A stretch of 45,698 nt of DNA, taken from Gemmatimonadota bacterium. GTDB taxonomy: Bacteria; Gemmatimonadota; Gemmatimonadetes; Gemmatimonadales; GWC2-71-9. A model generated the notes under the pieces. The model was not told where the DNA came from and ran no database searches. It saw only the letters and a list, made by a program, of their open reading frames with translations. Location: NCBI GenBank assembly GCA_016794825.1, contig JAEUJH010000672.1, positions 1 to 45,698 of the forward strand. Reading direction: 5' to 3'. Shown here piece after piece: positions 12,041 through 30,135 of the stretch. The translations under genes and the position numbers were made by a program. Each line of letters opens with the position of its first letter. Positions within the stretch are counted from its first letter, which is position 1.

Positions 12041-12078
12041 GTGAGGTTCCTCTGAAGGGGTTCGAGACCAACGTCGGG

Positions 12079-12774: not shown

Positions 12775-12965
12775 GGTGGTGCTTACGGCTCCTCGCGGGC
12801 AGGCGTTTCGAACGGCCGGGGTTTGAGCCACCCCATTCTAGGCGGAGCCCCGGTATCCCGTAAGTTCGACCCGGTCCGAGGCGGGGGTCAAGCGGACCCG
12901 GCCCGGTCACGTCGTGGTCACGGCCGATCGTCAGGTTGGGAGCGGCCTCAACCCCGGAGGGCTCC

Positions 12966-14554: not shown

Positions 14555-14620
14555 GGCCGGCGGCCCGTGCCGACGATGGCAACACGATGGCGCGGGAAAG
14601 TCTCGCGTCGTTCGACAACT

Positions 14621-14626
14621 AAGGAG
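14621..14626 (+). promoter_or_regulatory. Shine-Dalgarno sequence AAGGAG for the MIPS gene
   Basis: AAGGAG lies 5 nt upstream of GTG 14632. It is the strongest SD I see in the window. Confidence 0.5.
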
Positions 14627-14631
14627 ATCTC

Positions 14632-15963: not shown

Positions 15964-15969
15964 CCGGCC

Positions 15970-16260
15970 ATGAAGTACTTCCATCGCACCTCGGTCGCCC
16001 CGGACGACGTCGTCGCCCGGGCGGCCCGGTACTTCGGCGCCCGGATGAGCCCGACCGAGGAAGGCCTCCGGCGCCGGAAGTTCTCGAGCGCGGTCGGGCA
16101 GCTGTCGGTGTCGGTCCAGGCCGAGGGCGGCCACTACACCCTCGTCACGGTGGAAACCAATCAGCCCGGCGAGAGCGAACTCGACAAGTTCGCCAAGCGG
16201 TTCCTCGGGACGGTTCACACCATGGCGGACGAGACCCACGCGCTCCGGGGAGCCTACTGA
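15970..16260 (+). CDS. hypothetical small protein (96 aa)
   Basis: ATG lies 7 nt after the MIPS stop, and its own stop is 4 nt before the E1-alpha GTG. GC3-rich, non-repetitive sequence (MKYFHRTSVAPDDVVARAARYFGARMS...). No motif recognised. Confidence 0.6.
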   Translation: MKYFHRTSVAPDDVVARAARYFGARMSPTEEGLRRRKFSSAVGQLSVSVQAEGGHYTLVTVETNQPGESELDKFAKRFLGTVHTMADETHALRGAY

Positions 16261-17305: not shown

Positions 17306-18279
17306 GCGAGGTCACTTACCTCGAGGCGCTCCGCGACGGCCTCCGCGAGGAGCTCGAGCGCGACGAGCGCGTCTTCATGCTCGGCGAGGACATCGGCGGC
17401 TACGGCGGCGCGTTCAAGGTCACCGACGGCTTCCAGGCCCGGTTCGGGGCCGAGCGAATCATCGAGACCCCGATTTCCGAAACGGCCATCATCGGAGCCG
17501 CCGCCGGCGCCGCGCACATGGGCTTCCGCCCGGTGTGCGAAATGCAGTTCATCGACTTCCTGTCCTGCGGCTACTCGATCCTGACCAACTACGTCGCCAC
17601 GGCGCGCTATCGGGCCGATCTCAAGACCCCGATGGTCATCCGCGGCCCGTCGGGCGGCTACGTCCGCGGAGGCCCGTTCCATTCCCAGAATCCCGAGGCC
17701 TCCTACGTCCACACGCCCGGCCTCAAGGTGGTGGCACCGGCCACCGCCCGCGACGCCAAGGGCCTGATCAAGGCGGCCATCCGCGACGATGATCCGGTGC
17801 TCTACTTCGAGCACAAGTACCTCTACCGCCGGATCAAGGAGAACCTCCCCGCCGGCGAGGAGATCCTCACCCCGATCGGGAAGGCCCGGACCGCGCGGGA
17901 AGGGAAGCACCTGACCATCATTACCTATTCGGCCATGGTCTGGAAGTCGCTCGAGGCCGCCGAGGTGCTCGACCGCGAGGGGGTGTCCGTCGAAGTGCTC
18001 GACCTCCGCACCCTGCTCCCCCTCGACGCCGACGCCATCGTCGCGAGCGTCCGGAAGACCAACCGGGCCCTGGTGGTGCACGAGGACACCCGGACCGGCG
18101 GACTCGCGGGCGAGATCGCGGCCCTGATCAACGAACGCTGTTTCGAATGGCTGGACGCCCCGGTCCGCCGGGTGTGCGCGCACGACGTGCCGCTGCCGTA
18201 CGCGCCGACCCTCGAGGACTTCGTCCTGCCGCAGACCGATGACATCGTCAAAGCCGCCCGCTGGATGGCGGCGTACTAG
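17302..18279 (+). CDS. 2-oxo acid dehydrogenase E1 component beta subunit
   Basis: GTG 17302 is preceded by GGAGG and overlaps the alpha stop (GTGA). VTYLEALRDGLREELERDERVFMLGEDIG.. and ETPISE, EHKYLYR motifs are present. Confidence 0.9.
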   Translation: MSEVTYLEALRDGLREELERDERVFMLGEDIGGYGGAFKVTDGFQARFGAERIIETPISETAIIGAAAGAAHMGFRPVCEMQFIDFLSCGYSILTNYVATARYRADLKTPMVIRGPSGGYVRGGPFHSQNPEASYVHTPGLKVVAPATARDAKGLIKAAIRDDDPVLYFEHKYLYRRIKENLPAGEEILTPIGKARTAREGKHLTIITYSAMVWKSLEAAEVLDREGVSVEVLDLRTLLPLDADAIVASVRKTNRALVVHEDTRTGGLAGEIAALINERCFEWLDAPVRRVCAHDVPLPYAPTLEDFVLPQTDDIVKAARWMAAY

Positions 18280-18294
18280 CTGGAGAGAGACTCA

Positions 18295-19677
18295 ATGGCC
18301 CGCATCGACGTCGCAATGCCCCAGATGGGCGAGTCCATCGCCGAGGGCACCCTGTCCAAGTGGCTGAAGAAGGTCGGAGACCCCGTCAAGCGGGACGAGC
18401 CGATCTTCGAGATCTCGACCGACAAGGTCGACGCCGAAATCCCCTCGCCGACGGCCGGGGTGCTGGCCGAAATCCTGGTGCTCGAAGGGCAGACCGTGCC
18501 CGTCCAGACCCTGGTGGCGCGGATCGAAACCGACGCGGGCGCCGCCGCGGCCCCGGCCGCCCCCGCCGCGCCGGCCCCAGCTCCCGCCGCCGCGTCCGCT
18601 CCAGCGCCGGCTGCCGCCAAGCCCGCCGCGCCGGCGCCGGCTCCCGCGCCCGCCAAGGCGCCGCCGCCGCCCCCGGCCGTCCCGGCCGAGGAGTCGATGG
18701 AAGACCGGCTCCGTCGGAAGTCGACGCCGGTGGTTCGGAAGATCGCGGCCGAGCACGGCGTCGACATCAGCGCGGTGCCCGGAACCGGCCTCGCCGGCCG
18801 GGTGACCAAGCACGACCTCCTCGGCTTCCTCGAATCCGGCGCGGCCGCGCCGGCGCCCGCCGCCCCCGCGGCGCCGGCCGCACCCCGAGCTCCCGCCGCT
18901 CCCGCGGCCCCGCCGCCGGTGGCGGCGCCCGCCGGTGGCGTTACGGTCATTCCTGGGCCGGTGGTCGAACCGTGGGAGGGCGACAAGGTCGAGCCGTGGT
19001 CGCGGATCCGGAAGCTCACCGCCGACCACATGATCATGTCCCGGCGGGTGTCGCCCCACGTGGCGAGCCTGATCGAGATCGACTACACCCGGGTGTCCCA
19101 GGTCCGGGCGCGTCGCAAGGCGGAGTTCGCGGAGCGGGGCGTCAACCTGACGTTCCTCGCGTTCATCGCCAAGGCGGTGGCGGACAATCTCCGCAAGCAC
19201 CCGGTCGTCAACTCCGCCGTCATGGGCGAGGCCACCATTCTCCGGCGCGAGATCAACCTCGGCATTGCCGTGGCCCTCGACTGGGGTCTGATCGTGCCGG
19301 TCGTGCGCCGCGCCGATGAACTCAACCTGTTTGGTCTGGCCCGCTCGATCGGCGATCTCGCCGACCGGGCCCGGAACAAGAAGCTCTCGCCCGATGAGGT
19401 CCAGAAGGGGACGTTCACCATCACCAACCCGGGCGGGTTCGGGACGATCGTCGGCCTGCCGATCATCAACCAGCCGCAGTCGGCCATCCTCGCCGTCGGG
19501 GCCATCGAAAAGCAGCCGGCCGTGATCACCCAGCCGGACGGCACCGACACCATCGCCATTCGCACCAAGGGCATCCTGGCGATGTCGTTCGATCACCGGG
19601 TCGTCGACGGGGCGGACGCCGATCGGTTCCTGGCCGATCTCAAGAAGTCGCTCCACGAATTCCCCGACAACGCCTGA
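18295..19677 (+). CDS. dihydrolipoamide acyltransferase (E2) with one lipoyl domain
   Basis: Lipoyl motif EISTDKVDAEIPS. Two Ala/Pro linkers. Peripheral subunit-binding domain (STPVVRKIAAEHGVDISAVPGTGLAGRVTKHDL). Catalytic domain with SFDHRVVDG. Confidence 0.9.
   Translation: MARIDVAMPQMGESIAEGTLSKWLKKVGDPVKRDEPIFEISTDKVDAEIPSPTAGVLAEILVLEGQTVPVQTLVARIETDAGAAAAPAAPAAPAPAPAAASAPAPAAAKPAAPAPAPAPAKAPPPPPAVPAEESMEDRLRRKSTPVVRKIAAEHGVDISAVPGTGLAGRVTKHDLLGFLESGAAAPAPAAPAAPAAPRAPAAPAAPPPVAAPAGGVTVIPGPVVEPWEGDKVEPWSRIRKLTADHMIMSRRVSPHVASLIEIDYTRVSQVRARRKAEFAERGVNLTFLAFIAKAVADNLRKHPVVNSAVMGEATILRREINLGIAVALDWGLIVPVVRRADELNLFGLARSIGDLADRARNKKLSPDEVQKGTFTITNPGGFGTIVGLPIINQPQSAILAVGAIEKQPAVITQPDGTDTIAIRTKGILAMSFDHRVVDGADADRFLADLKKSLHEFPDNA
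18535..18687 (+). repeat. low-complexity GC-rich Ala/Pro-coding linker 1 of E2
   Basis: Encodes AGAAAAPAAPAAPAPAPAAASAPAPAAAKPAAPAPAPAPAKAPPPPPAVP. It is the source of several spurious antisense ORFs. Confidence 0.7.
18838..18933 (+). repeat. low-complexity Ala/Pro-coding linker 2 of E2
   Basis: Encodes AAAPAPAAPAAPAAPRAPAAPAAPPPVAAPAG. Confidence 0.7.
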
Positions 19678-19691
19678 CGGAGACGACGATC

Positions 19692-19949
19692 ATGCCGCGC
19701 ATCATCGAGGTCGACGGGGCTCGCTGGACGGTGACGCCGAGTGGTCGGCGGACCCAGTATGCCAAGGACGAGTTCACCGTCCAGTTCGCCCGGGCCGACG
19801 GGTCCGAGGTTCGGGCCGCCCGGTATTCGCCGCGCGACTCGAAGGCTCGGGAGGATTCACTCTTCGAGCTCACCGAGGCCCAGCTGACCGACCTGTTCCG
19901 ACGGTCCCAGCCGTCGTGGACCACGCCGGAACTCGGGTACCGCCGCTGA
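19692..19949 (+). CDS. hypothetical small protein (85 aa)
   Basis: ATG lies 14 nt after the E2 stop, preceded by GGAG. GC3-rich, non-repetitive (MPRIIEVDGARWTVTPSGRRTQYAKDEFTVQF...). No motif recognised. Confidence 0.55.
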   Translation: MPRIIEVDGARWTVTPSGRRTQYAKDEFTVQFARADGSEVRAARYSPRDSKAREDSLFELTEAQLTDLFRRSQPSWTTPELGYRR

Positions 19950-20797
19950 GCGCCTTCGCGGACCTCCATCTCCACAGCACGGCCTCCGACGGGACGCTCG
20001 CTCCGTCGGAGGTCGTTCGTCTTGGGGTCGAAGCCGGGCTCGCGGCGATCGGGCTGACCGATCACGACACGGTGGCCGGCGTCGCGGAAGCCCGCGCCGC
20101 GGGGCTCGCCGCCGGGATCCGGGTGGTGGCGGGCTGCGAGTTCTCGGTTGGGGCCGATGGTGGCGAAGTGCACCTGCTTGGCTACGCGCTGCCCGACACC
20201 GATCCCGAACTGCTGACCACGCTCGACCGGATGCGGGCCGCCCGGGCCGACCGCGGGCATGCGATGGTGGCCCGGATCGCCGCCTGCGGAATTCCGCTCG
20301 AGTACGCCGACGTCGAACGGGAGGCCGCCGGGGCGCCGATCGGCCGCCCTCACGTGGCCCGGGCGTTGATCGCCCGCAAGGCGGTCCGTTCGATCGAGGA
20401 GGCGTTCGACCGCCTGCTGGGCCGGGGCCGGCCGGCGTTCGTGCCGAAGGCGTTGCCGGAGTTGGCGGAGATCTGCGATCTGATCCGCCGGGTCGGTGGC
20501 GTCTCGTCGATCGCCCACCCCAAGGACCGGCTCAACCGGGCGGCGCTGGAGGAACTGCGGGCCCAGGGGCTCGACGCGATCGAGGTGTGTCACCCGAGCC
20601 ATTCCGGCCCGGTTCGCGCCAACCTCGAACGGCTCGCGGCCGAACTCGGTCTGCTGCCGACCGGGGGCAGCGACTCTCACGGCGCGGCCGCCGCCAGTCC
20701 GTCGCACGCGGTGGTCGGCGGCGAGCGGATCCCGATCGCCTGGGTCGACCGCCTCGAAGCCCTGGCCGCCAGTCGGCGGGCGCCGTCGGTTTCCTGA
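19916..20797 (+). CDS. PHP domain phosphoesterase (TrpH/YciV family)
   Basis: ADLHLHSTASDGTL, GLTDHDT, the CEFS..HLLGY block, and HP...GGSDSHG. GTG 19916 overlaps the small upstream ORF by 34 nt, so the start is uncertain. Confidence 0.8.
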   Translation: MDHAGTRVPPLSAFADLHLHSTASDGTLAPSEVVRLGVEAGLAAIGLTDHDTVAGVAEARAAGLAAGIRVVAGCEFSVGADGGEVHLLGYALPDTDPELLTTLDRMRAARADRGHAMVARIAACGIPLEYADVEREAAGAPIGRPHVARALIARKAVRSIEEAFDRLLGRGRPAFVPKALPELAEICDLIRRVGGVSSIAHPKDRLNRAALEELRAQGLDAIEVCHPSHSGPVRANLERLAAELGLLPTGGSDSHGAAAASPSHAVVGGERIPIAWVDRLEALAASRRAPSVS

Positions 20798-20861
20798 CGA
20801 GCCGGTCGAGAGGGTCGCTGCGGGCGGGTGCGGTGCCCCGCGCGCGTGGAGGTGAGGCGCG

Positions 20862-21641
20862 ATGACACACGAGGCAGAAGACGAGGCCCCCGTGGTGGCC
20901 ACCACCTTTCGCGACGTGGTGGTGATCGGGGGCGGCTGCTACGGGACGTTCTACGCCGGCCAGCTCCACGAAGCCCGTGCCCGGGGCAAGGCCGACTTCC
21001 GCTCCGTCCTCGTGGTCGATCGCGACCCGGCCTGCCAGGCGGTCCGCGAAGGGCGTCTGGGCGAGCGCGTCGAACTGGTGGTGGCCGACTGGAGCGCCTT
21101 CCTCGACGCCTTTCTCGAGCGCCCGGCGCCGGCCCCGGGCCAGCCGGACGACGCCATCGTCCCCTCGCCGTTGATGCCGCACCTGATGGCTCAGTGGCTC
21201 GAACGAACCGCCAGCCGACTCGCCCCGAGTCGGCACCCCCGGCCGGTGCCCGCCGAGCGTCCCCTCGGCACGCCCTACGACGTCCTGGCGCCCGACGGGA
21301 CCCGCTATGTCTCGTTTGCCGACTGGCTCTGTCCCACCCATTGCATCGAGCCCGCCATCTGCCCGGTCATTCGGGCGCCCCGGACCTGGGAAATGGGCGA
21401 TGCCCTGGAGCACTACGTCCAGCGGGCCGATCGGCGGCGCCCGACGCTCGGCCCCGCCTTGTTCGTCACCCGCCACCGCGCGTTCGGCGTCGGGATGTTC
21501 GACGTGGCCGAGGCGCGAGCCGCCCGCGCGGTCGTGGAGCAGGCCGTCGCCCGACCGGACCCGGTCGAGGTGGTGGTGGCGACCATTTCCTCCTGCCACG
21601 GCGCGGTTGGGGTGTTGCGATTCGACCCGGCGACGGGCTGA
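20862..21641 (+). CDS. hypothetical dinucleotide-binding (Rossmann-like) protein with a Cys cluster
   Basis: DVVVIGGGCYGTFYAGQL followed by SVLVVDRD is a GxGxxG plus acidic beta2 end. CPTHCIEPAICP (C-x3-C-x6-C) plus a distal SSCHG. GC3-rich, with GGAGGTGAGG upstream of the ATG. Family not recognised. Confidence 0.65.
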   Translation: MTHEAEDEAPVVATTFRDVVVIGGGCYGTFYAGQLHEARARGKADFRSVLVVDRDPACQAVREGRLGERVELVVADWSAFLDAFLERPAPAPGQPDDAIVPSPLMPHLMAQWLERTASRLAPSRHPRPVPAERPLGTPYDVLAPDGTRYVSFADWLCPTHCIEPAICPVIRAPRTWEMGDALEHYVQRADRRRPTLGPALFVTRHRAFGVGMFDVAEARAARAVVEQAVARPDPVEVVVATISSCHGAVGVLRFDPATG

Positions 21642-21671: not shown

Positions 21672-22190
21672 TCAGAGGACCAGGGCCAGCACCGTCAGGG
21701 CGGCGATGCACTGGCCCGCGAGGACATCGCCGGGGTAGTGGACCCCGAGCATCACCCGGCTCCAACCGACCAGCAGGCCGATGGTGACGAGCGGAAGGGT
21801 CAGGGCGGGGAACGCCGTCGCGTAGGCCAGGGCCACGGCCAGGCTCGAGGCGGAGTGTCCGGATGGGAACGAGAACCGATCGGGATTGGCGATCGTGGCT
21901 CGGCCCGGGTGCGCGGTCGACGGTCTTGGCCGCCCGATGAGCCGCTTGGCGACCTGGATGACCAGGTGCGAGATGACCAGCGCCAGCGCCGCCCTGATGG
22001 AGACGTCCCGGGGCCAGGGTTCGAGCGCGAGTGGAAGGGTCACGGCGGCGATGGTGACGACCGCGCTGCCGAGGGCCGTGATGCCGATCCAGACCCGGCG
22101 GCGGATTCGAGAGCCCTCGGAGCCGAGCGACCAGCGGAGAAAGAGATCCCGATCGCGGCGGTCGAGGCGGTGGAGCAGGCTGGCGCGCAT
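21672..22190 (-). CDS. PAP2 family lipid phosphatase
   Basis: ATG 22190 inside track ORF 21672..22274. Canonical C1/C2/C3 motifs KRLIGRPRP, PSGHS, SRVMLGVHYPGD. Several TM segments. Confidence 0.8.
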   Translation of the reverse strand: MRASLLHRLDRRDRDLFLRWSLGSEGSRIRRRVWIGITALGSAVVTIAAVTLPLALEPWPRDVSIRAALALVISHLVIQVAKRLIGRPRPSTAHPGRATIANPDRFSFPSGHSASSLAVALAYATAFPALTLPLVTIGLLVGWSRVMLGVHYPGDVLAGQCIAALTVLALVL

Positions 22191-22291
22191 GGCGGACCCC
22201 CGGGTCCAGGAGACGGGGTAAAGGTCGGGGACGGTCGTTAGGCCCCGGCCACGGGCCGGTCTCGATCGAGTCACGAGGCCTCCGGACCGAT

Positions 22292-22309
22292 CCGTGACCG
22301 GAGCCTAAC
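22292..22309 (+). promoter_or_regulatory. composite cis-element CCGTGACCGG-a-GCCTAAC upstream of GT4-A
   Basis: The 10-mer at 22292..22301 ends 40 nt before ATG 22342. The same 10-mer in the same gene-relative orientation lies 33 nt before GTG 25916 and 41 nt before ATG 30135 (minus strand). A GTTAGGC/GCCTAAC word adjoins it in all three places. Confidence 0.45.
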
Positions 22310-22341
22310 GTCATCGTGACGGCGGCCGGCCATCGTTCGGG

Positions 22342-23565
22342 ATGCGCGCCCTCTATTTCAGCGATACCTATCCCCCCCAGGTCAACGGCGTCTCCGTCGT
22401 CACCGAACTGTCCGTGGCCGGTCTGCTCGACCGCGGCTGGGACGTCGGGCTGGTCACGCCCCGGTACCCCGGCGGGCCAGGCGTGTTCGGTCGGGCCGCC
22501 GGGCAGTCGCTGCTGGAACTGCCCGCGCGGCCCTGCCCGGGCTATCCCGAAATCCAGCTGGCAGCCCCCCGGTTCGTGAAGGCGCTCGGGGCGGCTCGGC
22601 GGTTCCGCCCCGACCTGATCCACTGCGCCACCGAATTCTCCACCGGTTGGGTCGGTCAGTGGGTCGCCCGCCGGCTCGGCGTGCCGGTCGTCACCTCCTA
22701 TCACACCGACTTCGGCCGCTACATGGAGGCGTACGGGGTTCCCTGGCTCCGGTCGCCGGTGACCCGGTTCCTGACCGGCTTCCATCGGCGGGCCCGCCGG
22801 ACTCTGACGCCGTCGCGGGTCACCCGCACCGAGCTGGTGGAGCGGGGCATCGAACGAGCGATGGTCTGGGGTTGCGGGGTCGACGCGGTCCGGTTCGCGC
22901 CGGGGCGGCGCTCGGAGGAGCGGCGCCGGGCCCTCGGCGTCGACGGCCGGTTCCTGTTCCTTCATGTCGGTCGGCTCGCGCCCGAAAAGGGGGTCGACCG
23001 GATCCTGGCCGCGTTTGGGCGGTGCCGGGCCGTCCTGGGCGACCGGGTCCAGCTGATCATCGCCGGCGACGGTCCGGCCCGCGAGGAGCTGGCCCGCCTG
23101 GCGCCACCCGGCGTCACCCTGCTCGGTTACCTCGACCGCCACGTCGACCTGCCGGAGCTCTACGCCAGCGCCGACGCCTTCCTCTTCGCCTCCGAAACGG
23201 AGACCCTCGGGCTCGTCATCCTCGAGGCCATGGCCAGCGGGTTGCCCGTGGTCGCCGCCCCGGCGGGAGGGGTGGCGGATCACCTCGAGCACGGCGTCAA
23301 CGGCCTGGCGTTCGCGCCCGGTGATGGGGAGGCGATGACCCGCTTCATGATCGAGCTGGTGGAGCATCCCCCGTTCCGGAACGCGCTCGCCGACGGGGCC
23401 CGCCGGACCGCCGAACGGCTCTCGTGGGATCTCGAGCTCGACCGGCTCGATCGCTGCTACCGGGAGGTGTTGGCCGAGGGCGCCGGGGCCGTCGCGGCGA
23501 CGGCCGAGTTGCCGGAACGATCCGATCGATCGATGATTCCGGCGGCTCCCACCCCTCCGGCATGA
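22342..23565 (+). CDS. GT4 family glycosyltransferase (lipid-directed MgtA/PimB/SqdX-like), GT4-A
   Basis: MRALYFSDTYPPQVNGVS N-terminus. GRLAPEKG, and a C-terminal ETLGLVILEAMASGLPVVA...E motif (EX7E). Confidence 0.85.
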   Translation: MRALYFSDTYPPQVNGVSVVTELSVAGLLDRGWDVGLVTPRYPGGPGVFGRAAGQSLLELPARPCPGYPEIQLAAPRFVKALGAARRFRPDLIHCATEFSTGWVGQWVARRLGVPVVTSYHTDFGRYMEAYGVPWLRSPVTRFLTGFHRRARRTLTPSRVTRTELVERGIERAMVWGCGVDAVRFAPGRRSEERRRALGVDGRFLFLHVGRLAPEKGVDRILAAFGRCRAVLGDRVQLIIAGDGPAREELARLAPPGVTLLGYLDRHVDLPELYASADAFLFASETETLGLVILEAMASGLPVVAAPAGGVADHLEHGVNGLAFAPGDGEAMTRFMIELVEHPPFRNALADGARRTAERLSWDLELDRLDRCYREVLAEGAGAVAATAELPERSDRSMIPAAPTPPA

Positions 23566-24182
23566 CCGATTCGACCGGCTTCATTCACCTTCATCACCCG
23601 CCCCCGGAAGGGGAAACCCGCTACCTGCTCCTGCTCCACGGCACCGGGGGCGACGAGCACGACATGGTGTCGCTTGGCCGGATCGTCGCGCCCGCGTTCG
23701 GCTACCTGGCGCCCCGCGGCCAGGTTCTCGAGGGCGCCGCGCACCGGTACTTCCGCCGCCTGGCCGAGGGCGTCTTCGACGTTCCCGACCTGAAGCGCCG
23801 CGCCGACCAGCTGGCCGACTGGATCGTTGCCGCCGCCACTCGCTACCGGATCGATCGGACCCGGCTGACGGCGCTGGGATTCTCCAACGGCGCCAACATC
23901 GCGAGCGCCATGCTGTTTCAGCGCCCCGAGGCCTTCGGCGACGCGGTCCTGCTCCGCCCGATGGTGCCGTTCGAGCCGGATCCGGGTGACCTCGGGGGGC
24001 GTCGGATCCTCGCGCTGGGCGGAAGCCTGGACCCCATCACTCCGACCGAGCACCTCGACCGGCTGACGACCCTGTTGGCGGAACGGGGCGCCACGGTCGA
24101 CGCCCGCGTCGTCCCGGCCGGGCACGGCCTCGTCCGCGCCGACCTCGAGGCCGTGGCCAGCTGGCTGCAACGGACCCCCTGA
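23562..24182 (+). CDS. phospholipase/carboxylesterase family alpha/beta hydrolase
   Basis: The ATG overlaps the GT4-A stop (ATGA). LLLLHGTGGDEHD, nucleophile elbow GFSNGA, and a distal D and H (PAGHG). Confidence 0.8.
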   Translation: MTDSTGFIHLHHPPPEGETRYLLLLHGTGGDEHDMVSLGRIVAPAFGYLAPRGQVLEGAAHRYFRRLAEGVFDVPDLKRRADQLADWIVAAATRYRIDRTRLTALGFSNGANIASAMLFQRPEAFGDAVLLRPMVPFEPDPGDLGGRRILALGGSLDPITPTEHLDRLTTLLAERGATVDARVVPAGHGLVRADLEAVASWLQRTP

Positions 24183-24216
24183 GGAACTCGGCCCCGGCCG
24201 GCACACTACTATATTT

Positions 24217-24233
24217 GGGCCCGCTTCGGGCCC
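24217..24233 (+). terminator. GC hairpin after the esterase gene / in the trxB leader (function uncertain)
   Basis: GGGCCCG-ctt-CGGGCCC is preceded by the only AT-rich patch of this gap (TATATT, 24210..24215). There is no downstream U-tract, so it could equally be a 5'-UTR hairpin of a trxB transcript. Confidence 0.3.
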
Positions 24234-24275
24234 CCGGTCGCGGGGCGACGGACCTCTGAGGAGATTGCGCCGATC

Positions 24276-25217
24276 ATGGATCGATTCGATGTCATCATCG
24301 TGGGCGCCGGCCCGGCGGGCCTGTGCGCCGCGATGTATGCCGGGCGGGGAATGTTGAACGCCGTCGTGCTCGAACGCGGCATCCCCGGCGGGGAGTTGCT
24401 CAACACGGAAAAGATCGAGGACTATCCGGGGTTCGAGTCGATCCTCGGCCCCGAGCTCGCCACCCGGATGACCGATCACGCCAAGAAGTTCGGCGCCGAC
24501 ATCCGGATGGAGAACGTCGAGGGCATCCACCCGCAACCCGGCGGTGGGTTCCGGGTCACCACCAGTTCGGGGGCCGAGTTCGAGGCTCCCACGGTCATCC
24601 TCACCGCAGGTGGGACGCCCACCAAGCTCGGGGTGCCCGGCGAGGCCGAGTACGCCGGGCGGGGCGTGTCGTACTGCGCGGTCTGCGACGGCGCCTTCTT
24701 CAAGGGCGAGCAGATCGCGGTCATCGGTGGCGGCGACGCGGCCGTCGAGGAGGCGGACTACCTGACCCGCTACGCCTCCAAGGTCACCATCGTGCACCGC
24801 CGCGATGCCTTCCGGGCCTCGAAGGTCGTCCAGGAACGGGCCCTCCGGAACCCGAAGATCGAGGTGCTCTGGAACAAGAAGGTCCTCGAAATGGTCGGCG
24901 ACCCGACCGGTTTGAAGCGGCTGGACCTCGAGGACACCGTCACCGGCGCCCGCTCCGAGCTGGCCGCGACCGGCGCGTTCGTGTTCATCGGCTTTACGCC
25001 CAACAGCGGGCTGGTCAAGGCGCACATCAACCACGACCCGTCGGGGTATCTCCTCACCGACGACCGGATGATGACCTCGATCCCCGGGCTGTTCGCCGCC
25101 GGCGACCTCCGGGTCCAGTTGACCCGTCAGGTCACCACCGCCGTCGGCGACGCGACCACCGCGGCCATTGCCGTCGAGAAGTACCTCACCGAACTCAAGA
25201 GCCGAGCGGCGGTCTGA
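24276..25217 (+). CDS. trxB: thioredoxin-disulfide reductase
   Basis: 313 aa. FAD motif IIVGAGPAGL, redox-active CAVCDG, NADPH motif VIGGGDAAVEEA, C-terminal GLFAAGD. Confidence 0.9.
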   Translation: MDRFDVIIVGAGPAGLCAAMYAGRGMLNAVVLERGIPGGELLNTEKIEDYPGFESILGPELATRMTDHAKKFGADIRMENVEGIHPQPGGGFRVTTSSGAEFEAPTVILTAGGTPTKLGVPGEAEYAGRGVSYCAVCDGAFFKGEQIAVIGGGDAAVEEADYLTRYASKVTIVHRRDAFRASKVVQERALRNPKIEVLWNKKVLEMVGDPTGLKRLDLEDTVTGARSELAATGAFVFIGFTPNSGLVKAHINHDPSGYLLTDDRMMTSIPGLFAAGDLRVQLTRQVTTAVGDATTAAIAVEKYLTELKSRAAV

Positions 25218-25220
25218 TCG

Positions 25221-25856
25221 ATGGCTCCGCTCCGGATCGTCACGATCCCGAACGGCCAGTTCCAGGAGAACTGCTACCTGCTGGCGGAAGCGGGCTCCAC
25301 CGACGCGGTGATCGTGGATCCCGGCGAGGAGCCCGAGCTCTTCCTGGCCACGGCGGAACGGGAAGGCCTCCAGATCCGGGAAATCTGGCTCACCCACGCG
25401 CACCTCGACCATGTCGTCGGCGTCGCCGACATCAAGGCCGCCACCGGCGCGCCGATCTTCCTCCACCCCGCTGACGAACCCCTCTACCGGAACCTTCCCC
25501 AGCAGGGGCTCTGGTTCGGCCTCCGCCTGTCGGCGCCGCCGCCGGTCGACCGACAACTGAGCCACGGCGGGAGCCTCACCCTCGGGTCGACGGTGTTCCA
25601 GGTGCGGCACACCCCCGGACACTCGGCCGGCAGCGTCTGTTTCATCACCGACGGCATCGTCATCGGCGGCGACGTCCTGTTCCAGGGCTCGATCGGCCGG
25701 ACCGACCTTCCGGGCGGGAACTTCGAGCGCCTGATCCAGTCGATCCGGGACGAGCTGCTGCCTCTGCCGGACGCCACCGTGGTCTACTCGGGGCATGGCC
25801 CCGCCACGACCGTCGGCGCCGAGCGCCGTGGTAACCCGTTCCTCGTGGAGGCGTGA
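25221..25856 (+). CDS. MBL-fold metallo-hydrolase (hydroxyacylglutathione hydrolase-like)
   Basis: THAHLDHVVG (HxHxDH), HTPGHS, GDVLF..GRTD. Starts 3 nt after the trxB stop. Confidence 0.85.
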   Translation: MAPLRIVTIPNGQFQENCYLLAEAGSTDAVIVDPGEEPELFLATAEREGLQIREIWLTHAHLDHVVGVADIKAATGAPIFLHPADEPLYRNLPQQGLWFGLRLSAPPPVDRQLSHGGSLTLGSTVFQVRHTPGHSAGSVCFITDGIVIGGDVLFQGSIGRTDLPGGNFERLIQSIRDELLPLPDATVVYSGHGPATTVGAERRGNPFLVEA

Positions 25857-25859
25857 CCT

Positions 25860-25882
25860 GTTAGGCACGAAGCCGTGACCGG
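25860..25882 (+). promoter_or_regulatory. composite cis-element GTTAGGC-n6-CCGTGACCGG upstream of GT4-B
   Basis: See element 22292..22309. The 10-mer at 25873..25882 ends 33 nt before GTG 25916. Extra CGTGAC(C) copies lie at 25852 and 25915. Confidence 0.45.
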
Positions 25883-25915
25883 GAGGAGGGGCGGCCGCCG
25901 CTAGCTTGTCAGTCC

Positions 25916-27178
25916 GTGACGAGGCTCACCGCCCTTCCGACCCTCTCGTCCGGAGCCGCTTCGGCGGATCGCTCCGGGGCCGAATTGCCCCCCCGCCTCA
26001 GACCGCACGCCCGCCTCGGCGTCCTCGACGTCACCAAGTACTTCGGCACCACCAGCGGCGGGATCAAGACCTATCTCCTGGAAAAGGCCCGCTTCGTGGC
26101 CGTCCGTCCGGAGCTTCGTCAGATCATGGTGGTTCCCGGGCCCGCCGACCGGGTCGATACCCGGAACGGGTCCCGGATCTACGCGCTTCGCGGGCCCCGG
26201 ATCCCGGCCAATCCCCCCTACCGATTCCTGCTTGCCACGCGGTCATTCCGGCGGATCGTCGAACACGAGCGGCCCGACGTCATCGAGGTCGGCAGTCCAT
26301 TTCTGGTGCCCTGGTTGAGCCGGCTGGCCAATCGGCGCCACGAAGCGCCGATGGTCTGGTACTACCATACCAACGTTCCCCGTCTGGTCGGTCCCGAGTT
26401 CGGATTGGCGCGGACTCGGGGGCTCGCGACGGCGGCGCTCGAGCGCTATGTCCGGTTCCTGGGGCGCCGGTTTCCGGTGGTCATCTGCGCCTCCGACTAC
26501 GCCGCGGCCGAACTCCACGGCTGCGGGGTCGAGCGAGTCGTCCGGGTCCCGTTAGGCGTCGACACGATCACGTTCCACCCCCGGCGGCGCGAGTGGGCAT
26601 CGGAGACGAGGGCGGTCCACGGCCTCCCGGACGGCCCCCTGGCCATCTACGCCGGCCGGTTCGCGGCCGAAAAGCGGCTCGATGTCGTCCTGGACGCGTG
26701 GGCCGAGGTGGAGCGGCGGAGTCGGATGCGGCTTGCCCTGGTCGGCGCCGGCCCGGACGAGGCCCGCCTTCGGGCTCACCCGTATGCCGCCCGGGTCACC
26801 TGGCTCCCGTACCAACGGGAGCGGGATCGGCTGGCCGACCTCCTGGCGGCCGCCGACGTGGCGGTTGCTCCGGGTCCCTCCGAGACGTTCGGGCTGGCGG
26901 TTCTCGAGAGCCTCGCGTCCGGCACCCCGGTCCTGTCCGTGGACGCCGGCGGCGCGGGCGAACTGGCGTTCCGGTCCAGAGCTGGAGAGCGCTACCGCGA
27001 TGGAGACGTCGGCCATCTCGCCCAGGCGGCGGTCTGGCTGGCGCGCCAGAACCTCCCGTTTCTCGGGGAGCGGGCTCGTCGCTACGCCGAGGCCGAGCAT
27101 TCGTGGGACGCCGTGTTCGCGGCCCTGTTCGAGGTCTACAGAGGCGTCACCAGTGGTTCGTGGCCGGAGCCCCGATGA
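25916..27178 (+). CDS. GT4 family glycosyltransferase, GT4-B
   Basis: GTG start. GRFAAEKR, and a C-terminal SETFGLAVLESLASGTPVLS (EX7E-like). The N-terminal half differs from GT4-A and GT4-C. Confidence 0.8.
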   Translation: MTRLTALPTLSSGAASADRSGAELPPRLRPHARLGVLDVTKYFGTTSGGIKTYLLEKARFVAVRPELRQIMVVPGPADRVDTRNGSRIYALRGPRIPANPPYRFLLATRSFRRIVEHERPDVIEVGSPFLVPWLSRLANRRHEAPMVWYYHTNVPRLVGPEFGLARTRGLATAALERYVRFLGRRFPVVICASDYAAAELHGCGVERVVRVPLGVDTITFHPRRREWASETRAVHGLPDGPLAIYAGRFAAEKRLDVVLDAWAEVERRSRMRLALVGAGPDEARLRAHPYAARVTWLPYQRERDRLADLLAAADVAVAPGPSETFGLAVLESLASGTPVLSVDAGGAGELAFRSRAGERYRDGDVGHLAQAAVWLARQNLPFLGERARRYAEAEHSWDAVFAALFEVYRGVTSGSWPEPR

Positions 27179-28038
27179 CGATTGGCCTGGCGGGCCACGT
27201 TGCCGCGGTTGGCCTGGTTGGCCTCGATCTCGCGGCCCGCACGGAACGGCTCCGCCTCCTGCTCGGCGCCGCCGGTCAGCGGATTGCGGGCGGCGAGGCG
27301 TTCCGGGCCAACCTCCTGGCCGATTTCGGATCGGCGATCACGCCGATGCGGGTTGGCGGCGAGCCAGCCCGGGCGGCGGGACTTCGGATGGCCGGTGTGT
27401 CCTGGCCGCGCGTCGTCGCCGCCCTCGCGACCGAGGTGGCCGTGGCGGCTCCGGTCACCGTGGGGGTTGGTGTCGGCCTGCTCGCTGCCTTTGGGGGCCA
27501 ATGGTGGCGGGACGCGGGTCTGCGGGTCCGGCAATCACCGGGGTCGATCGGCTCCTGGGTCGCGATGGTCGTCGTGGTGGCCGGATTGGCGTGGTGGGTC
27601 AGGCGCCGTTGGGCCGGACATGGGGGAGGGTCCGTGGCGGTGGCCGCCCCGGGCTCGGTCGCGGATTGCCCGGCGCCGAGCCGGCCCGGACTCGCCGGCG
27701 GTGCCCGGATCGCGGGCGTCGCGGCGCTGCTCTCGGCCGTCAATGTCCTCTGCCGGGTCTCGATTCTCCCGGTGCTGGCTTGGAGCGCCGGCGACACCAC
27801 CGCGATTGGAACGCTCGCGGTCGGCGCGTTCCTGCTGATCTATGGTCAGCTGGTGACCCCGTCGCCAGCCGGGGTCGGGATGGTCGACGCGGCGTTCCTG
27901 GCGGGCGGCGCGGGCGCGACCGACCTCGGGCTGCTCCTCGCGTGGCGCTTCTACACCACCGGCGTCGGGGCGGGGTTGGGGGGGCTGGTGGCGGCCACCC
28001 GCTTGAGCCAGCTTCGGCTGGGTCGACGCGAACGTTAG
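27175..28038 (+). CDS. UPF0104 / lysyl-PG-synthase-TM-type (flippase-like) membrane protein
   Basis: ATG 27175 overlaps the GT4-B stop (ATGA). About 8 hydrophobic segments with Gly/Ala-rich TM helices. Family call is by eye from the topology, the PMRVGGEPARAAGL-type loop, and its GT-coupled context. Confidence 0.65.
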   Translation: MTIGLAGHVAAVGLVGLDLAARTERLRLLLGAAGQRIAGGEAFRANLLADFGSAITPMRVGGEPARAAGLRMAGVSWPRVVAALATEVAVAAPVTVGVGVGLLAAFGGQWWRDAGLRVRQSPGSIGSWVAMVVVVAGLAWWVRRRWAGHGGGSVAVAAPGSVADCPAPSRPGLAGGARIAGVAALLSAVNVLCRVSILPVLAWSAGDTTAIGTLAVGAFLLIYGQLVTPSPAGVGMVDAAFLAGGAGATDLGLLLAWRFYTTGVGAGLGGLVAATRLSQLRLGRRER

Positions 28039-29180
28039 GCGGCCCTGGCCGGCCGGCCGGCGGCTGCCGCCTCGGCGTACGACCCAACCAGCTGGTCGTA
28101 GATCGGTCCCCAGGCCCGTCCCAGCGCCGTGGTCCGGGCCGCCTTGGCCAGGTTGCGGCGGAGGGCCGCATCGCCGAGCAGGCGGTCGAGCGCGTCGCGG
28201 AACGCGCCCGGGTCCACCGGGTCGGCAAGCAGGGCGTTGACCCCGTCCACTCCGAACTCGCCGATGCCGCCCGCGTTCATCGCGACCGGCGCCACACCGG
28301 CCGCCATCGCCTCCAGGGTCACGTTGCCGAAGGTCTCCGTCACCGACGGCATCGCGAAGACGTCGGCCGAAGCGTAGGCGGTCGCGAGGTCGATGCCTCG
28401 TTTCATTCCCGTCAGGTGGACTCTCGGCAGGGCCCGGCGCCGGATCGCCGGCTCCATCAGGCCCTGGCCGGTGAACACCAGGTGGGAGCGGGGGTATCGG
28501 GGGGCGAGGGACTCCCACGCGTCGAGCAGCCGTTCCACTCCCTTTTCCGGGGCGATCCGGCCGACGTAGCCGACCAGGAGGTCGTCGGGGCCGATCCCGA
28601 GATCCGATCGGTACCGGGCCGAGCGGAACGACGGCGAGAACTGGTCGGCGTCGACTCCCCGGGTCCAGATCCCGGTGTGCTCGATCCCCCGGCTCCGAAG
28701 GTGTCGTTCGAACGAGGCGCTGGGCGCCAGCACCCGATGCGCGTGCCGGTAGAACCACCGGAGGTAGATCCACCCGGCCCCGACGGCCCAGCGCATCCCG
28801 TAGCGTCCAGCGTAGCGCTCGTAGTCGGTGTGCGCCGACGCGATGATCGGCGCCCCGATGGCCCGGGCCGCGCGGAGGCCGGCGTAGCCCATCGCGAACT
28901 CCGTCGCCAGGTGAACCACGTCCGGTCGGAAGCGAGCGAGATCCGCGGTGATCTCGTCCTGGTCCGGCGCGGCCCACTGCACCTCCGGCGAGAGGAAGAA
29001 CGTACGCCCCGCGCTCCGGTGCACCTCCGGCCGATCCGCCGCGCCGCCGAGCGGGTAGGCCGCGGAGTAGACCCGGAGCTGGTGGCCGCGCCGCATCAGC
29101 GCATCGGCGGTCCGCGTCAACGTGGTCGAGACGCCACTGACCATCGGCCAGTACACCTCGGAGAAGATGGCGATTCGCAT
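28035..29180 (-). CDS. GT4 family glycosyltransferase, GT4-C (paralogue of GT4-A)
   Basis: ATG 29180 gives MRIAIFSEVYWPMVSGVS. HLATEFAMGY..HTDYERY..GRIAPEKG..ETFGNVTLEAMAAGVAPVA is colinear with GT4-A. Confidence 0.85.
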   Translation of the reverse strand: MRIAIFSEVYWPMVSGVSTTLTRTADALMRRGHQLRVYSAAYPLGGAADRPEVHRSAGRTFFLSPEVQWAAPDQDEITADLARFRPDVVHLATEFAMGYAGLRAARAIGAPIIASAHTDYERYAGRYGMRWAVGAGWIYLRWFYRHAHRVLAPSASFERHLRSRGIEHTGIWTRGVDADQFSPSFRSARYRSDLGIGPDDLLVGYVGRIAPEKGVERLLDAWESLAPRYPRSHLVFTGQGLMEPAIRRRALPRVHLTGMKRGIDLATAYASADVFAMPSVTETFGNVTLEAMAAGVAPVAMNAGGIGEFGVDGVNALLADPVDPGAFRDALDRLLGDAALRRNLAKAARTTALGRAWGPIYDQLVGSYAEAAAAGRPARAA

Positions 29181-29193
29181 CGAGTCGCTCCGG

Positions 29194-30135
29194 TCAGGTG
29201 GCTTCGGGCAGGCCCGACGGCAGCAGGACCGAATGCGGCTGCCGCTGGCGAACCAGCCCGGTAAGGGACGGGACCACGACCGCCTGGAGGAAACCGGCCA
29301 CCACGAGGCCGGCGACCGTGTCGATCGCGAAGTGGTTCTGGGTATAGACCGTCGCCAATGCAATCAGGCCCGCGAGCACGGTGACCAGGGAGGCAATCCC
29401 CGGCCGCCCGATCCGCCACGCGATCCACGCGAACGTGACCGCGCCGACCGTGTGGGAACTCGGAAACGCGGTGCCGAGCGAATCGCCCGCCGATCGGAGC
29501 CCGAGGTTGAGTTGATAGAAGTAGCCCGAGGTGAGGTCACCCTGGTAAATCGGCCACAGTTCCCGAGGACCGACCACCGGGAAGTACGAGTAGATCAGGA
29601 AGCAGCCCAGATACGACACCGCGATCCGCAGCACGACCTCCCGGCGGATTGCCAGATCTCGTCCGGCCAACAGGACGAGCGGAATCGCCGCCAGCATCAG
29701 GTAGTAAGTGAAGTAGGCCCCTTGCATCACCTCGCTCATCGCCGTCGACGGCATCGTCTCCACCCAGCTCAGGTTGAGGTGGGTTCCGAAGAGCTGGAGG
29801 TCCCACCCCGCCACCAGGGGATCGTTGATCGGCTCGGGCAGCAGGTCGTGGCGGAGACCCAACTCGCTCCAGAACATCGCCGTCCACAACAAGGGATACG
29901 TCTCCCGTAGCCCGGCCGTGACCTGGCTCAGGGGAGCCTGGACCCGGCGCAGCAGCCAGGGGAGTGCGAGCGCGCCGAGATGCACGGCGGCGAACCAGCG
30001 GGCGGAGGGGAGGCGGGGGACGAGGGGAAGCCAGGAACAGAGGAGGAGGACGTTGACCAGGGCCACCCAGCGATCGACGGGCAGCAGGGCCTCGGAATCC
30101 CGCATCGGCGCTCTCGGTTCGAGTCGCCGTAACAT
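29194..30135 (-). CDS. polytopic PAP2-superfamily protein, Aur1/Ipt1-like (PAP2_3-type) candidate phospho-headgroup transferase
   Basis: 313 aa with about 8 TM segments. C2/C3-like motifs FPSSHT and YTQNHFAIDTVAG, with no KxxxxxxRP C1 motif. Its stop lies 13 nt upstream of the GT4-C start. Confidence 0.7.
   Translation of the reverse strand: MLRRLEPRAPMRDSEALLPVDRWVALVNVLLLCSWLPLVPRLPSARWFAAVHLGALALPWLLRRVQAPLSQVTAGLRETYPLLWTAMFWSELGLRHDLLPEPINDPLVAGWDLQLFGTHLNLSWVETMPSTAMSEVMQGAYFTYYLMLAAIPLVLLAGRDLAIRREVVLRIAVSYLGCFLIYSYFPVVGPRELWPIYQGDLTSGYFYQLNLGLRSAGDSLGTAFPSSHTVGAVTFAWIAWRIGRPGIASLVTVLAGLIALATVYTQNHFAIDTVAGLVVAGFLQAVVVPSLTGLVRQRQPHSVLLPSGLPEAT

Follow-up and report, generated by a model that had tools for sequence, protein, structure and literature searches.

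A putative membrane-lipid head-group island with a gpgSDF-related core on a conserved Gemmatimonadota backbone

A 45,698-nucleotide stretch of DNA from a Gemmatimonadota bacterium (the window, meaning the whole stretch that we analysed) carries three GT4 glycosyltransferase genes together with two types of PAP2 gene, an esterase gene and a gene for a polytopic UPF0104 protein. Which membrane lipid might such a set of genes produce, and do the inositol genes in the same window bear on the answer?

Genes of the region and their relation to gpgSDF

Every gene, motif and junction given in a preliminary description of this DNA was found in place when the sequence was re-read and searched for domains. 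The features considered here are as follows.

13916-16260, forward strand: conserved backbone unit of CDP-alcohol transferase, MIPS and a conserved 96-aa ORF
13916-14554, forward strand: PIP-synthase-like CDP-alcohol transferase (profile matches)
14632-15963, forward strand: MIPS (profile matches)
21672-22274, reverse strand: small PAP2 (Pfam PAP2, 75 bits)
22342-23565, forward strand: GT4-A (Pfam Glyco_transf_4 and Glycos_transf_1)
23562-24182, forward strand: esterase, a carboxylesterase-like alpha/beta-hydrolase (Pfam Abhydrolase_2, marginal; NCBIfam)
24276-25217, forward strand: thioredoxin reductase TrxB (TIGR01292, 360 bits, above cut-off)
25221-25856, forward strand: MBL-fold hydrolase (domain search)
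25916-27178, forward strand: GT4-B, GpgS-like (Pfam; NF053787)
27175-28038, forward strand: UPF0104/LPG_synthase_TM protein, GpgF-like (Pfam, 64.8 bits; cut-off 33.4)
28035-29180, reverse strand: GT4-C, paralogue of GT4-A (Pfam)
29194-30135, reverse strand: PAP2_3, 313 aa, 8-TM (Pfam PAP2_3)

The sequence reads ATGA at 23562-23565, where GT4-A stops and the esterase starts, and again at 27175-27178 between GT4-B and UPF0104; a 13-nt spacer, ccGGAGcgactcg, separates PAP2_3 from GT4-C. TrxB and the MBL hydrolase, which sit mid-region and were missing from the earlier gene list, are conserved backbone outside the variable lipid module. TrxB adjoins GT4-B-like genes even in distant taxa. The gap between MIPS and the module is filled by a 2-oxoacid dehydrogenase E1a/E1b/E2 operon, a PHP phosphoesterase and an AF_1314_C-like gene. 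The same gene pairs reappear in many independent loci and in varied gene orders, which argues that the grouping is more than chance.

The layout had been described as matching no known operon, a statement that we revise. Judged by sequence, GT4-B and UPF0104 are homologous to gpgS and gpgF of Pseudomonas aeruginosa (PMC12713373), and sister genomes carry the full synthase-deacetylase-flippase (S-D-F) set at the same site. GT4-B is the core of the lipid module, and the core of the region is a deacetylase-less relative of gpgSDF. The top curated match of GT4-B is NF053787 (GlcNAc-PG synthase), at 248.5 bits (E 8.6e-74) over the full length; this is far under the equivalog cut-off of 480 bits, and thus the donor and acceptor may differ from those of GpgS. 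Transferases of the GT4-B type score equally against this model in every context, canonical S-D-F triads included, and more than 1150 homologs exist at ~55% identity or above. In the S-D-F locus L088, at the identical backbone site, GT4-B is followed by DUF2334 and then by a UPF0104 protein that ours matches at 124 bits; the DUF2334 protein best matches NF053788 (GlcNAc-PG deacetylase model) at 145 bits, also under its equivalog cut-off. A search of the whole window found no deacetylase gene. At least 14 loci show the S-D-F order and at least 13 show S-F, which omits the deacetylase; this gene has been lost at least four times in Gemmatimonadota. All three GTs have NF053787, the model of a lipid-directed GT4, as their best curated NCBIfam match, above LPS-core and EPS enzymes. 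Domains and curated matches agree with the preliminary description's picture of a membrane glycolipid or head-group gene set with a flippase-like UPF0104 partner.

Two PAP2-type enzymes, each paired with a transferase

The protein encoded at 29194-30135, whose start in the database is probably at 30105, scores 66.5 bits against Pfam PAP2_3 and 34.4 bits against plain PAP2. Its His-His-Asp triad (H228, H268 and D272) is invariant in an alignment of homologues and lines up with H255/H294/D298 of Aur1 in an HMM alignment (PMC13133130). An AF2 model of the protein (pLDDT 89.3) has Aur1 structures as its top Foldseek matches (9vj4_A, TM 0.59/0.65; 9ivc_A, TM 0.54/0.51), a moderate fold similarity (TM ~0.6) over 285 aligned columns at ~15% identity. 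Sequence and predicted fold thus place the protein in the PAP2_3/Aur1 branch and not with PgpB/BcrC, as had been suspected. PAP2 phosphatases hold the phosphomonoester through Lys/Arg. No Lys or Arg is found among the invariant or near-invariant columns of the PAP2_3 alignment, and the C1 Lys/Arg and C3 Arg are absent; since every phosphomonoester-holding residue is missing, PAP2_3 would be expected to cleave phosphodiesters.

GT4-C is co-transcribed downstream of PAP2_3 and is indeed a paralogue of GT4-A (39% identity over the full length). In neighbour-joining trees, built without support values, each member of the GT4-C orthologous clade adjoins a clade-A PAP2_3; clade A itself specifically neighbours GT4-C, GT4-B or UPF0104, whereas for the sister clade of clade A the neighbour is UPF0104. 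In L121-125 and L163-168, GT4-B is immediately preceded by a GT4-C-like gene. Several S-F loci have no PAP2_3 (L089, L091, L092, L101 and L112) and L079 has PAP2_3 and GT4-C next to a complete S-D-F, which argues against linking the role of PAP2_3 to the loss of the deacetylase.

The small PAP2 reads KRLIGRPRP, PSGHS and SRVMLGVHYPGD in translation, following the pattern C1 KxxxxxxRP, C2 PSGH and C3 SRxxxxxHxxxD. Its start is likely the ATG at 22190, giving 172 aa, a length like that of its orthologues, with the GTG at 22274 as an alternative. NCBIfam matches are weak (undecaprenyl-diphosphatase, PgpB, LpxE). All GT4-A orthologues adjoin a small PAP2 by tree and neighbourhood, the two genes being divergently oriented, and in L012, L086, L108 and L119 a small PAP2 gene immediately precedes GT4-B. 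In NCBIfam, GT4-A best matches NF053787 (171 bits, covering part of its length); the MGlcDAG synthase model gives 85 bits over the full length. The esterase scores 22.7 bits against Abhydrolase_2 (cut-off 23) and 130 bits against the MhqD-like carboxylesterase model of NCBIfam (cut-off 325). It is not present in the syntenic locus L001 and is a lineage-specific addition, ATGA-coupled to GT4-A. The conserved PAP2_3/GT4-C and small PAP2/GT4-A pairs are two previously undescribed add-ons.

Inositol genes and competing readings

The region had also been tied to MIPS and the CDP-alcohol transferase. Both genes are real, the PIP-synthase-like enzyme scoring 158 bits against a model cut-off of 170, and the transferase-MIPS-96-aa-ORF triad is kept in L169, L170 and L171 whether the module is present or not. 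The functional link did not hold up, as module and MIPS do not co-vary among the neighbourhoods of relatives. L169 and L171 (MIPS 84-91% identical) keep PIP synthase, MIPS, 2-oxoacid dehydrogenase, TrxB, MBL and cupin genes and have no GT, PAP2 or UPF0104 genes, the insertion site being empty. L088, L087, L086 and L012 carry the lipid module without an adjacent MIPS, and L012 has all six genes in compact form without TrxB or MBL. A shared chromosomal backbone alone accounts for the proximity of the module to the inositol genes.

This lack of co-variation weighs on the possibility that GT4-B, with GT4-A and GT4-C, glycosylates phosphatidylinositol like PimA/PimB or PIG-A, that UPF0104 flips the product, and that PAP2_3 transfers (glycosyl)inositol-phosphate to a lipid. 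We consider this unlikely. MIPS is extremely conserved across the phylum, so phosphatidylinositol is probably available in this genome, which has MIPS and a PIP-synthase-like enzyme; Aur1, the nearest structural relative of PAP2_3, takes phosphatidylinositol as donor (PMC13133130); sequence searches of the PDB with the GTs match PimA and PimB', among others (42-61 bits); the automatic JGI label of GT4-B is 'alpha-1,6-mannosyltransferase'; and its score under the GpgS cut-off would allow another acceptor. However, GT4-B and the sister-lineage deacetylase best match the PG-specific gpgS and gpgD models, and PatA-type acyltransferase and sphingolipid genes are absent from the window. The product may still be phosphatidylinositol-based, since the inositol genes seem to belong to the core gene set of the phylum, but no feature of the region points specifically there.

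It seems rather more doubtful that the region is a phosphate-sparing system like PlcP/Agt, in which both PAP2s convert phospholipids or phosphatidate to diacylglycerol, GT4-A and GT4-C serve as glycosyl-DAG synthases, and GT4-B with UPF0104 is a separate neighbour. The alpha-monoglucosyl-DAG synthase model does cover GT4-A and GT4-C in full (85-90 bits), each of the two always has a PAP2-superfamily enzyme as its partner, and the small PAP2 has the complete phosphatase motif set. Yet the GlcNAc-PG synthase model gives both transferases higher scores (171 bits for GT4-A, 146 bits for GT4-C), PAP2_3 is without the residues expected in a phosphatidate phosphatase, and the adjacency of GT4-A/C-type genes to GT4-B, found at 17 or more loci and in five or more arrangements, speaks for a single pathway.

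It is very improbable that the genes serve envelope-polysaccharide, LPS-core or lipid-A remodelling, with the PAP2s dephosphorylating lipid A or undecaprenyl-PP and the GT4s acting as transferases for core or EPS, or that they are neighbours by chance without a common pathway: the small PAP2 best matches undecaprenyl-diphosphatases and weakly LpxE (54 and 20 bits), GT4 EPS families and WaaG are among the weaker matches, and close relatives are syntenic across the whole region, housekeeping genes included, but EPS and LPS models score well under the lipid-GT model, Wzx/Wzy, polyprenyl-phosphate transferase and export genes are absent from the window, and the pairings recur in other orders and at other sites (L012, L079, L086, L087, L119, L121-125) and so are not due to backbone synteny.

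A three-module proposal and its known relatives

We favor, with a probability of roughly 55%, an accessory membrane-lipid head-group island of three modules that occupies two insertion sites in a conserved Gemmatimonadota backbone; the sites would be the AF_1314_C/TrxB and MBL/cupin intervals. Module 1, GT4-B and UPF0104, is a gpgS-gpgD-gpgF homologue minus the deacetylase. By analogy, GT4-B, working at the cytoplasmic face, would use a nucleotide sugar to add an N-acetylhexosamine (or hexose) to an anionic glycerophospholipid head group, and UPF0104 would carry the glycosylated lipid to the outer leaflet, its sugar presumably remaining N-acetylated and neutral without a deacetylase. In module 2, PAP2_3 might cut the phosphodiester of an outer-leaflet lipid, passing the phospho-head group to another hydroxyl (or water) and freeing diacylglycerol, while GT4-C could act on the same lipid family by extending the glycan or glycosylating the freed diacylglycerol. 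Module 3 would pair the small canonical PAP2, a putative phosphomonoesterase making or trimming an acceptor (PGP to PG or PA to DAG), with its own GT, GT4-A; the esterase would join in this lineage only. A literature search found no published lipid data on this phylum.

The actinobacterial PIM pathway (PgsA1, PimA, PatA, PimB') resembles this genome in combining PIP synthase, MIPS and GT4 lipid GTs. Unlike in that pathway, the GTs of the window neither adjoin nor co-vary with inositol genes, no PatA-type acyltransferase is present in the window, and GpgS is a closer relative of the GTs than PimA or PimB' is. Aur1, the catalytic subunit of fungal inositol-phosphorylceramide synthase (PDB 9vj4, 9ivc; PMC13133130), shares with our PAP2_3 the Pfam family, an 8-TM fold, the triad of C2 His and C3 HxxxD, and the motifs 'AFPSxH' and 'T-x-Y-x-x-x-H', in which Thr replaces the phosphatase Arg. 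In contrast to Aur1, PAP2_3 has no evident Kei1-like partner, and its neighbors are GT4 and UPF0104 genes, with sphingolipid genes absent nearby. hexSDF of Clostridioides difficile follows a shared logic, a lipid GT, an optional deacetylase and an MprF-like flippase altering membrane charge (PMC10128005). Its product is aminohexosyl-hexosyl-diradylglycerol, HexS is annotated as MGDG-synthase/MurG-like and not GT4, the acceptor is a glycolipid rather than a phospholipid, and there are no PAP2 partners (PMC10128005). The closest parallel is the P. aeruginosa gpgSDF operon for GlcN-PG synthesis (Khan, Palmer & Guan, J Bacteriol 2025; PMC12713373), whose function was established by genetics and heterologous expression, with phosphatidylglycerol as acceptor and a still putative flippase role for UPF0104/GpgF (PMC12713373). 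There, as here, a GT4 synthase is followed by a UPF0104 flippase-like protein, and the matching locus of sister Gemmatimonadota holds the complete order, including a GpgD-like DUF2334. gpgSDF differs in having a deacetylase, which the window does not, and GT4-B and the relatives' deacetylase each fall under the equivalog cut-offs; to the gpgSDF scheme the region adds two GT4s and two PAP2-superfamily enzymes.

Gene content of the lipid region

The window has a G+C content of ~70%, and its proteins are nearest to those of Gemmatimonadota MAGs. Identity is 91% between the PAP2_3 protein and one from "uncultured Gemmatimonadetes bacterium RBC063" (L006; L-numbers denote the loci or contigs of relatives compared with the window), and 91-92% between MIPS and MAG proteins of Gemmatimonadetes/Gemmatimonadales. 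Because long spurious open reading frames (ORFs) are common at such G+C, gene calling started from GC3, which on its own dropped real genes in favor of antisense ORFs, and moved on to a codon log-odds model with the window as training set. The gene order is as follows.

13916-14554, PIP-synthase-like CDP-alcohol transferase
14632-15963, MIPS
15970-16260 (+), 96-aa ORF without a Pfam or NCBIfam match
16265-19677, 2-oxoacid dehydrogenase E1a, E1b and E2
19692-19949 (+), 85-aa ORF
19916-20797 (+), PHP-domain phosphoesterase
20862-21641 (+), AF_1314_C-like gene (259-aa protein)
21672-22190 (-), small PAP2 phosphatase
22342-23565 (+), glycosyltransferase GT4-A
next, alpha/beta-hydrolase (esterase)
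24276-25217, TrxB-like gene
next, MBL hydrolase
25916-27178 (+), glycosyltransferase GT4-B
27175-28038 (+), UPF0104 (LPG_synthase_TM) protein
28035-29180 (-), glycosyltransferase GT4-C
29194-30135 (-), PAP2_3 protein (313 aa)
next (-), cupin
next, aspartase/fumarase-type lyase

All elements listed in the preliminary description are present, and profile matches confirm their domains. The translation of the small PAP2 gene contains all three phosphatase motifs (C1 KxxxxxxRP, C2 PSGH, C3 SRxxxxxHxxxD; PF01569, 75 bits), and FPSSHT...NHFAIDTVAG is seen in the large PAP2 protein. The two ATGA overlaps are confirmed, as are the paralogy of GT4-A and GT4-C (39% identity over the full length) and the 13-nt spacer between PAP2_3 and GT4-C, which holds GGAG. 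That description mentioned neither TrxB and the MBL hydrolase, which lie inside the 8.5 kb, nor the dehydrogenase operon that stands between MIPS and the lipid region.

Several further features of the map were observed. A 421-aa ORF at 19640-20905 (-) was rejected by the codon log-odds model as a high-G+C antisense artifact; the real genes there are the plus-strand 85-aa ORF and PHP phosphoesterase, as in L001, L088 and L171. UPF0104 and GT4-C converge with overlapping stop codons (TAG, 28036-28038; TAA on the minus strand, 28035-28037), leaving no intergenic room for a terminator (28035-28038), and a scan for sigma-70 promoters and terminators found no more than chance level. The 259-aa AF_1314_C-like protein has no significant match in local Pfam and NCBIfam copies, and its orthologs bear the precomputed label PF27252 (AF_1314_C); its gene constantly neighbors TrxB and is directly followed by the inserted PAP2/GT4-A module. 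At 39244-41891 (+), two TPR-containing genes adjoin, of which the second also carries a fused HD_5 (HD-GYP-like) domain.

The GT4-B/UPF0104 core and its missing deacetylase

Of the NCBIfam models, the one that GT4-B matches best is "N-acetylglucosaminyl phosphatidylglycerol synthase" (NF053787; E 8.6e-74), with 248.5 bits over model positions 3-360 of 361, a score below the equivalog cut-off of 480. This model represents GpgS of Pseudomonas aeruginosa, the only species in which gpgSDF has been described (2024-25), as an operon of gpgS (GT4), gpgD (COG3233 deacetylase) and gpgF (UPF0104) that makes GlcNAc-PG and then GlcN-PG; the evidence comes from transposon mutants and expression in E. coli, and the flippase role of GpgF is predicted only (PMC12713373). 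Downstream of GT4-B in the window, the UPF0104 protein scores 64.8 bits against PF03706 (cut-off 33.4) and 124 bits against the UPF0104 protein of L088; a PDB sequence search with it gave nothing useful. The ATGA overlap joining the two genes leaves no deacetylase between them, and a search of all six frames of the window found no homolog of DUF2334, the GpgD-like deacetylase. Judged from these matches, the core appears to be a relative of gpgSDF that lacks the deacetylase.

A direct comparison is offered by L088, which has the same backbone as the window (E1a, E1b, E2, PHP, AF_1314_C, TrxB, MBL ... cupin, lyase) and carries, at the same chromosomal site, GT4-B, DUF2334 and LPG_synthase_TM in that order. 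Its DUF2334 protein has NF053788 (GlcNAc-PG deacetylase) as best match (145 bits, full length).

The family of GT4-B is very large and well conserved (more than 1150 matches, with identity still ~55% at rank 120). We scanned metagenome contigs with GT4-B as anchor and labeled genes at the domain level. The order GT4-B, DUF2334, UPF0104 occurred at 11 loci, and at three loci it was followed by a GT4-A/C-like gene; such a gene also followed GT4-B plus DUF2334 (three loci) or GT4-B alone (two loci). GT4-B with UPF0104 and no DUF2334 was found at six metagenome loci, in the window-type genome loci (L001, L006, L008), in L003/L004 and in L012. GT4-B scores against the GpgS model were 239-251 bits whatever the context, full triads included, so the low score reflects phylum-level divergence, and the window GT4-B seems no further drifted than other Gemmatimonadota copies. 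In a neighbor-joining tree (drawn with no support values), loci without the deacetylase occupy at least four separate positions, which suggests repeated loss.

We considered whether the PAP2_3 protein substitutes for the missing deacetylase. This was rejected, since L079 has both and five loci with GT4-B and UPF0104 have neither; the placement of PAP2_3 and GT4-C next to a complete triad in L079 points to PAP2_3 as an add-on.

Two side observations concern the neighbors of GT4-B. In L087, the GT4-A/C-like gene that follows GT4-B and DUF2334 (11948-13163) was called as two pieces, of 292 aa with the N-domain and 114 aa with Glycos_transf_1, and may be frameshifted, a pseudogene or a product of misassembly. 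In Gemmatimonadota the TrxB-like gene lies upstream of GT4-B with MBL in between; in a distant group of ~55% G+C (L131-L161, e.g., L145 4681-7176), it is directly upstream of a GT4-B-like gene whose product is only 30-33% identical. Inspection of L145 gave no clue to the reason for this adjacency.

The PAP2_3 protein and the glycosyltransferase pairings

The preliminary description tentatively placed the large PAP2 protein in the Aur1 branch, and score, triad and fold all agree with this placement rather than with the PgpB/BcrC clade. The protein scores 66.5 bits against PF14378 (PAP2_3), above the gathering score, versus 34.4 bits against PF01569 (PAP2). Across 36 aligned members of the family, H228, H268 and D272 never vary, and no column that is invariant or at least 90% conserved has Lys or Arg. 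The C3 "SR" of phosphatases (-7/-6 relative to H268) gives way to "AT"; Aur1 has "ST" and the phosphatase LpxE "ER" there. The family profile aligns the triad to H255/H294/D298 of Aur1, which mutagenesis showed to be essential for IPC synthesis (PMC13133130). In a Foldseek search of the PDB with an AlphaFold2 model (pLDDT 89.3, pTM 0.87), the two best matches were both Aur1, with moderate similarity for 9vj4_A (E 1.5e-4, TM 0.59/0.65, 285 columns) and TM 0.54/0.51 for 9ivc_A; for B. subtilis PgpB, SMSr and LpxE, only the catalytic core aligned (TMq ≤0.40). From the model helices and the positive-inside rule, we infer eight TM helices with both termini inside and a periplasmic triad. This is the usual PAP2 arrangement; with the triad so placed, the lipid substrate would have to be in the outer leaflet. 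We found no paper on bacterial Aur1-like enzymes in the literature.

Relatives of the PAP2_3 protein numbered 128 in 185,579 species genomes and are nearly confined to Gemmatimonadota, with some in Eisenbacteria and a few in stray MAGs. Context labeling and a tree (likewise with no support values) divided them into three clades. Clade A, which includes the window, neighbors GT4-C, GT4-B and UPF0104. Its sister, clade B, has HAD-NeuB and fatty-acid hydroxylase genes before PAP2_3 and UPF0104 after it. The large clade C typically has alpha/beta-hydrolase, fatty-acid desaturase and epimerase genes before PAP2_3 and epimerase and CPBP protease genes after it, and also takes in a radical-SAM context and the Eisenbacteria type. 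Among genome loci L005-L085, at least three other conserved Gemmatimonadota contexts were counted: the hydrolase-desaturase-epimerase type, ending in a CPBP/Rce1-like protease (~37 loci); the HAD-NeuB-hydroxylase type, with an aminotransferase-SDR fusion (~9 loci); and radical-SAM followed by PAP2_3 (5-6 loci). These look like undescribed lipid head-group pathways; some genomes have two PAP2_3 paralogs.

The tree of GT4-A/C-like proteins, also drawn with no support values, contains two clean orthologous groups. GT4-A orthologs all adjoin the small PAP2 gene (window, L001, L119, L086, L027, L050), and GT4-C orthologs all adjoin clade-A PAP2_3 (window, L001, L002, L006, L008, L029, L019, L079, L012). 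In distant lineages (L121-125, L163-168), a GT4-C-like gene is directly upstream of GT4-B, a position held by the small PAP2 gene in L012, L086, L108 and L119. All six genes are compact in L012, which has neither TrxB nor MBL: GT4-A (reverse), PAP2, GT4-B, UPF0104, PAP2_3, one more gene and GT4-C (reverse). The recurrence of these pairings in varied orders and genomic sites argues for one functional system made up of three modules. The esterase is absent from L001 and is apparently specific to the window's lineage.

Inositol genes, a proposed pathway and known systems

The preliminary description tied the lipid cluster functionally to MIPS and the CDP-alcohol transferase, a tie that the absence of co-variation in L169, L171, L088, L087, L086 and L012 speaks against. 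The window MIPS is genuine and the transferase has PIP synthase as its best match (158 bits; cut-off 170), so the organism probably makes phosphatidylinositol (PI). Across thousands of matches, MIPS identity stays at 84-92%. In L169 (MIPS 91% identical) and L171 (84%), the transferase, MIPS, 96-aa ORF, E1a, E1b, E2, PHP and AF_1314_C genes continue into TrxB, MBL, cupin (reverse) and lyase, with no GT4, UPF0104 or PAP2 genes at either locus and 55 bp between MBL and cupin in L169. L170 keeps only the transferase, MIPS and 96-aa ORF, which form a conserved Gemmatimonadota inositol unit even where the downstream genes differ. The 96-aa ORF always follows MIPS (L169 11335-11625, L170 11406-11696, L171 11351-11641, window 15970-16260 (+)). 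L088 has an amidase instead of MIPS before E1a, and L086, L087 and L012 carry the module at unrelated sites without adjacent MIPS. Thus, a conserved backbone carries the lipid genes as variable inserts, and backbone synteny alone accounts for their closeness to MIPS.

PI may still serve as a substrate, given that inositol genes seem to occur throughout the phylum; the neighborhood gives no support for this. It could be envisaged that GT4-B, DUF2334 where present, and UPF0104 act on PI instead of PG, and that the Aur1-fold PAP2_3 protein is a (glycosyl)inositol-phosphotransferase building an outer-leaflet GIPC/GPI-like lipid. Such a route, from GlcNAc-PI to GlcN-PI and then flipping, would parallel in bacteria the first three eukaryotic GPI-anchor steps; PIG-A is a GT4 enzyme too. 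We regard this combined scenario as unlikely.

More probably, by homology to gpgSDF, GT4-B would glycosylate an anionic phospholipid head group at the cytoplasmic side (PG and GlcNAc are acceptor and sugar in the characterized system), and UPF0104 would then translocate the product, whose sugar would stay neutral with no deacetylase. The periplasm-facing PAP2_3 protein would most plausibly cleave or transfer a phosphodiester head group, releasing diacylglycerol; its lack of monoester-binding residues suggests diester chemistry. GT4-C could extend the glycolipid or glycosylate the released diacylglycerol. With all phosphatase motifs present, the small PAP2 protein might plausibly supply or trim the acceptor for GT4-A. 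All of these substrate assignments are inferences; a literature search on Gemmatimonadota polar lipids and inositol lipids found nothing relevant.

A gpgSDF-type system appears widespread, modular and highly variable in Gemmatimonadota, an abundant, poorly cultured soil phylum with essentially uncharacterized polar lipids, where repeated deacetylase loss would turn a cationic sugar head group into a neutral one. The same chromosomal site is found empty, with GT4-B/UPF0104, with the full triad, and with GT4-B/UPF0104 plus PAP2_3 and GT4-C, a natural genotype series for comparative lipidomics. Having a defined pathway around one bacterial Aur1-like enzyme would also provide a tractable handle on the function of the many orphan bacterial PAP2_3 proteins.

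Among known systems, Aur1 is characterized by a PI donor, a ceramide acceptor and the Kei1 partner; neither sphingolipid-synthesis genes nor an obvious small Kei1-type partner gene was seen in the window. As for a PIM-type pathway, the glycosyltransferases show no neighborhood linkage or co-variation with PIP synthase and MIPS; against PDB entries for PimA and PimB', they score only 42-61 bits. The system resembles hexSDF (PMC10128005) in its working, more loosely than it resembles gpgSDF. With gpgSDF of P. aeruginosa it shares the downstream UPF0104 gene; the window GT4-B has the GpgS model as best match but is under its equivalog threshold, the deacetylase, a defining gpgSDF feature, is missing, and two undescribed partnerships are added: the Aur1-fold PAP2_3 protein with GT4-C, and the small PAP2 protein with GT4-A.
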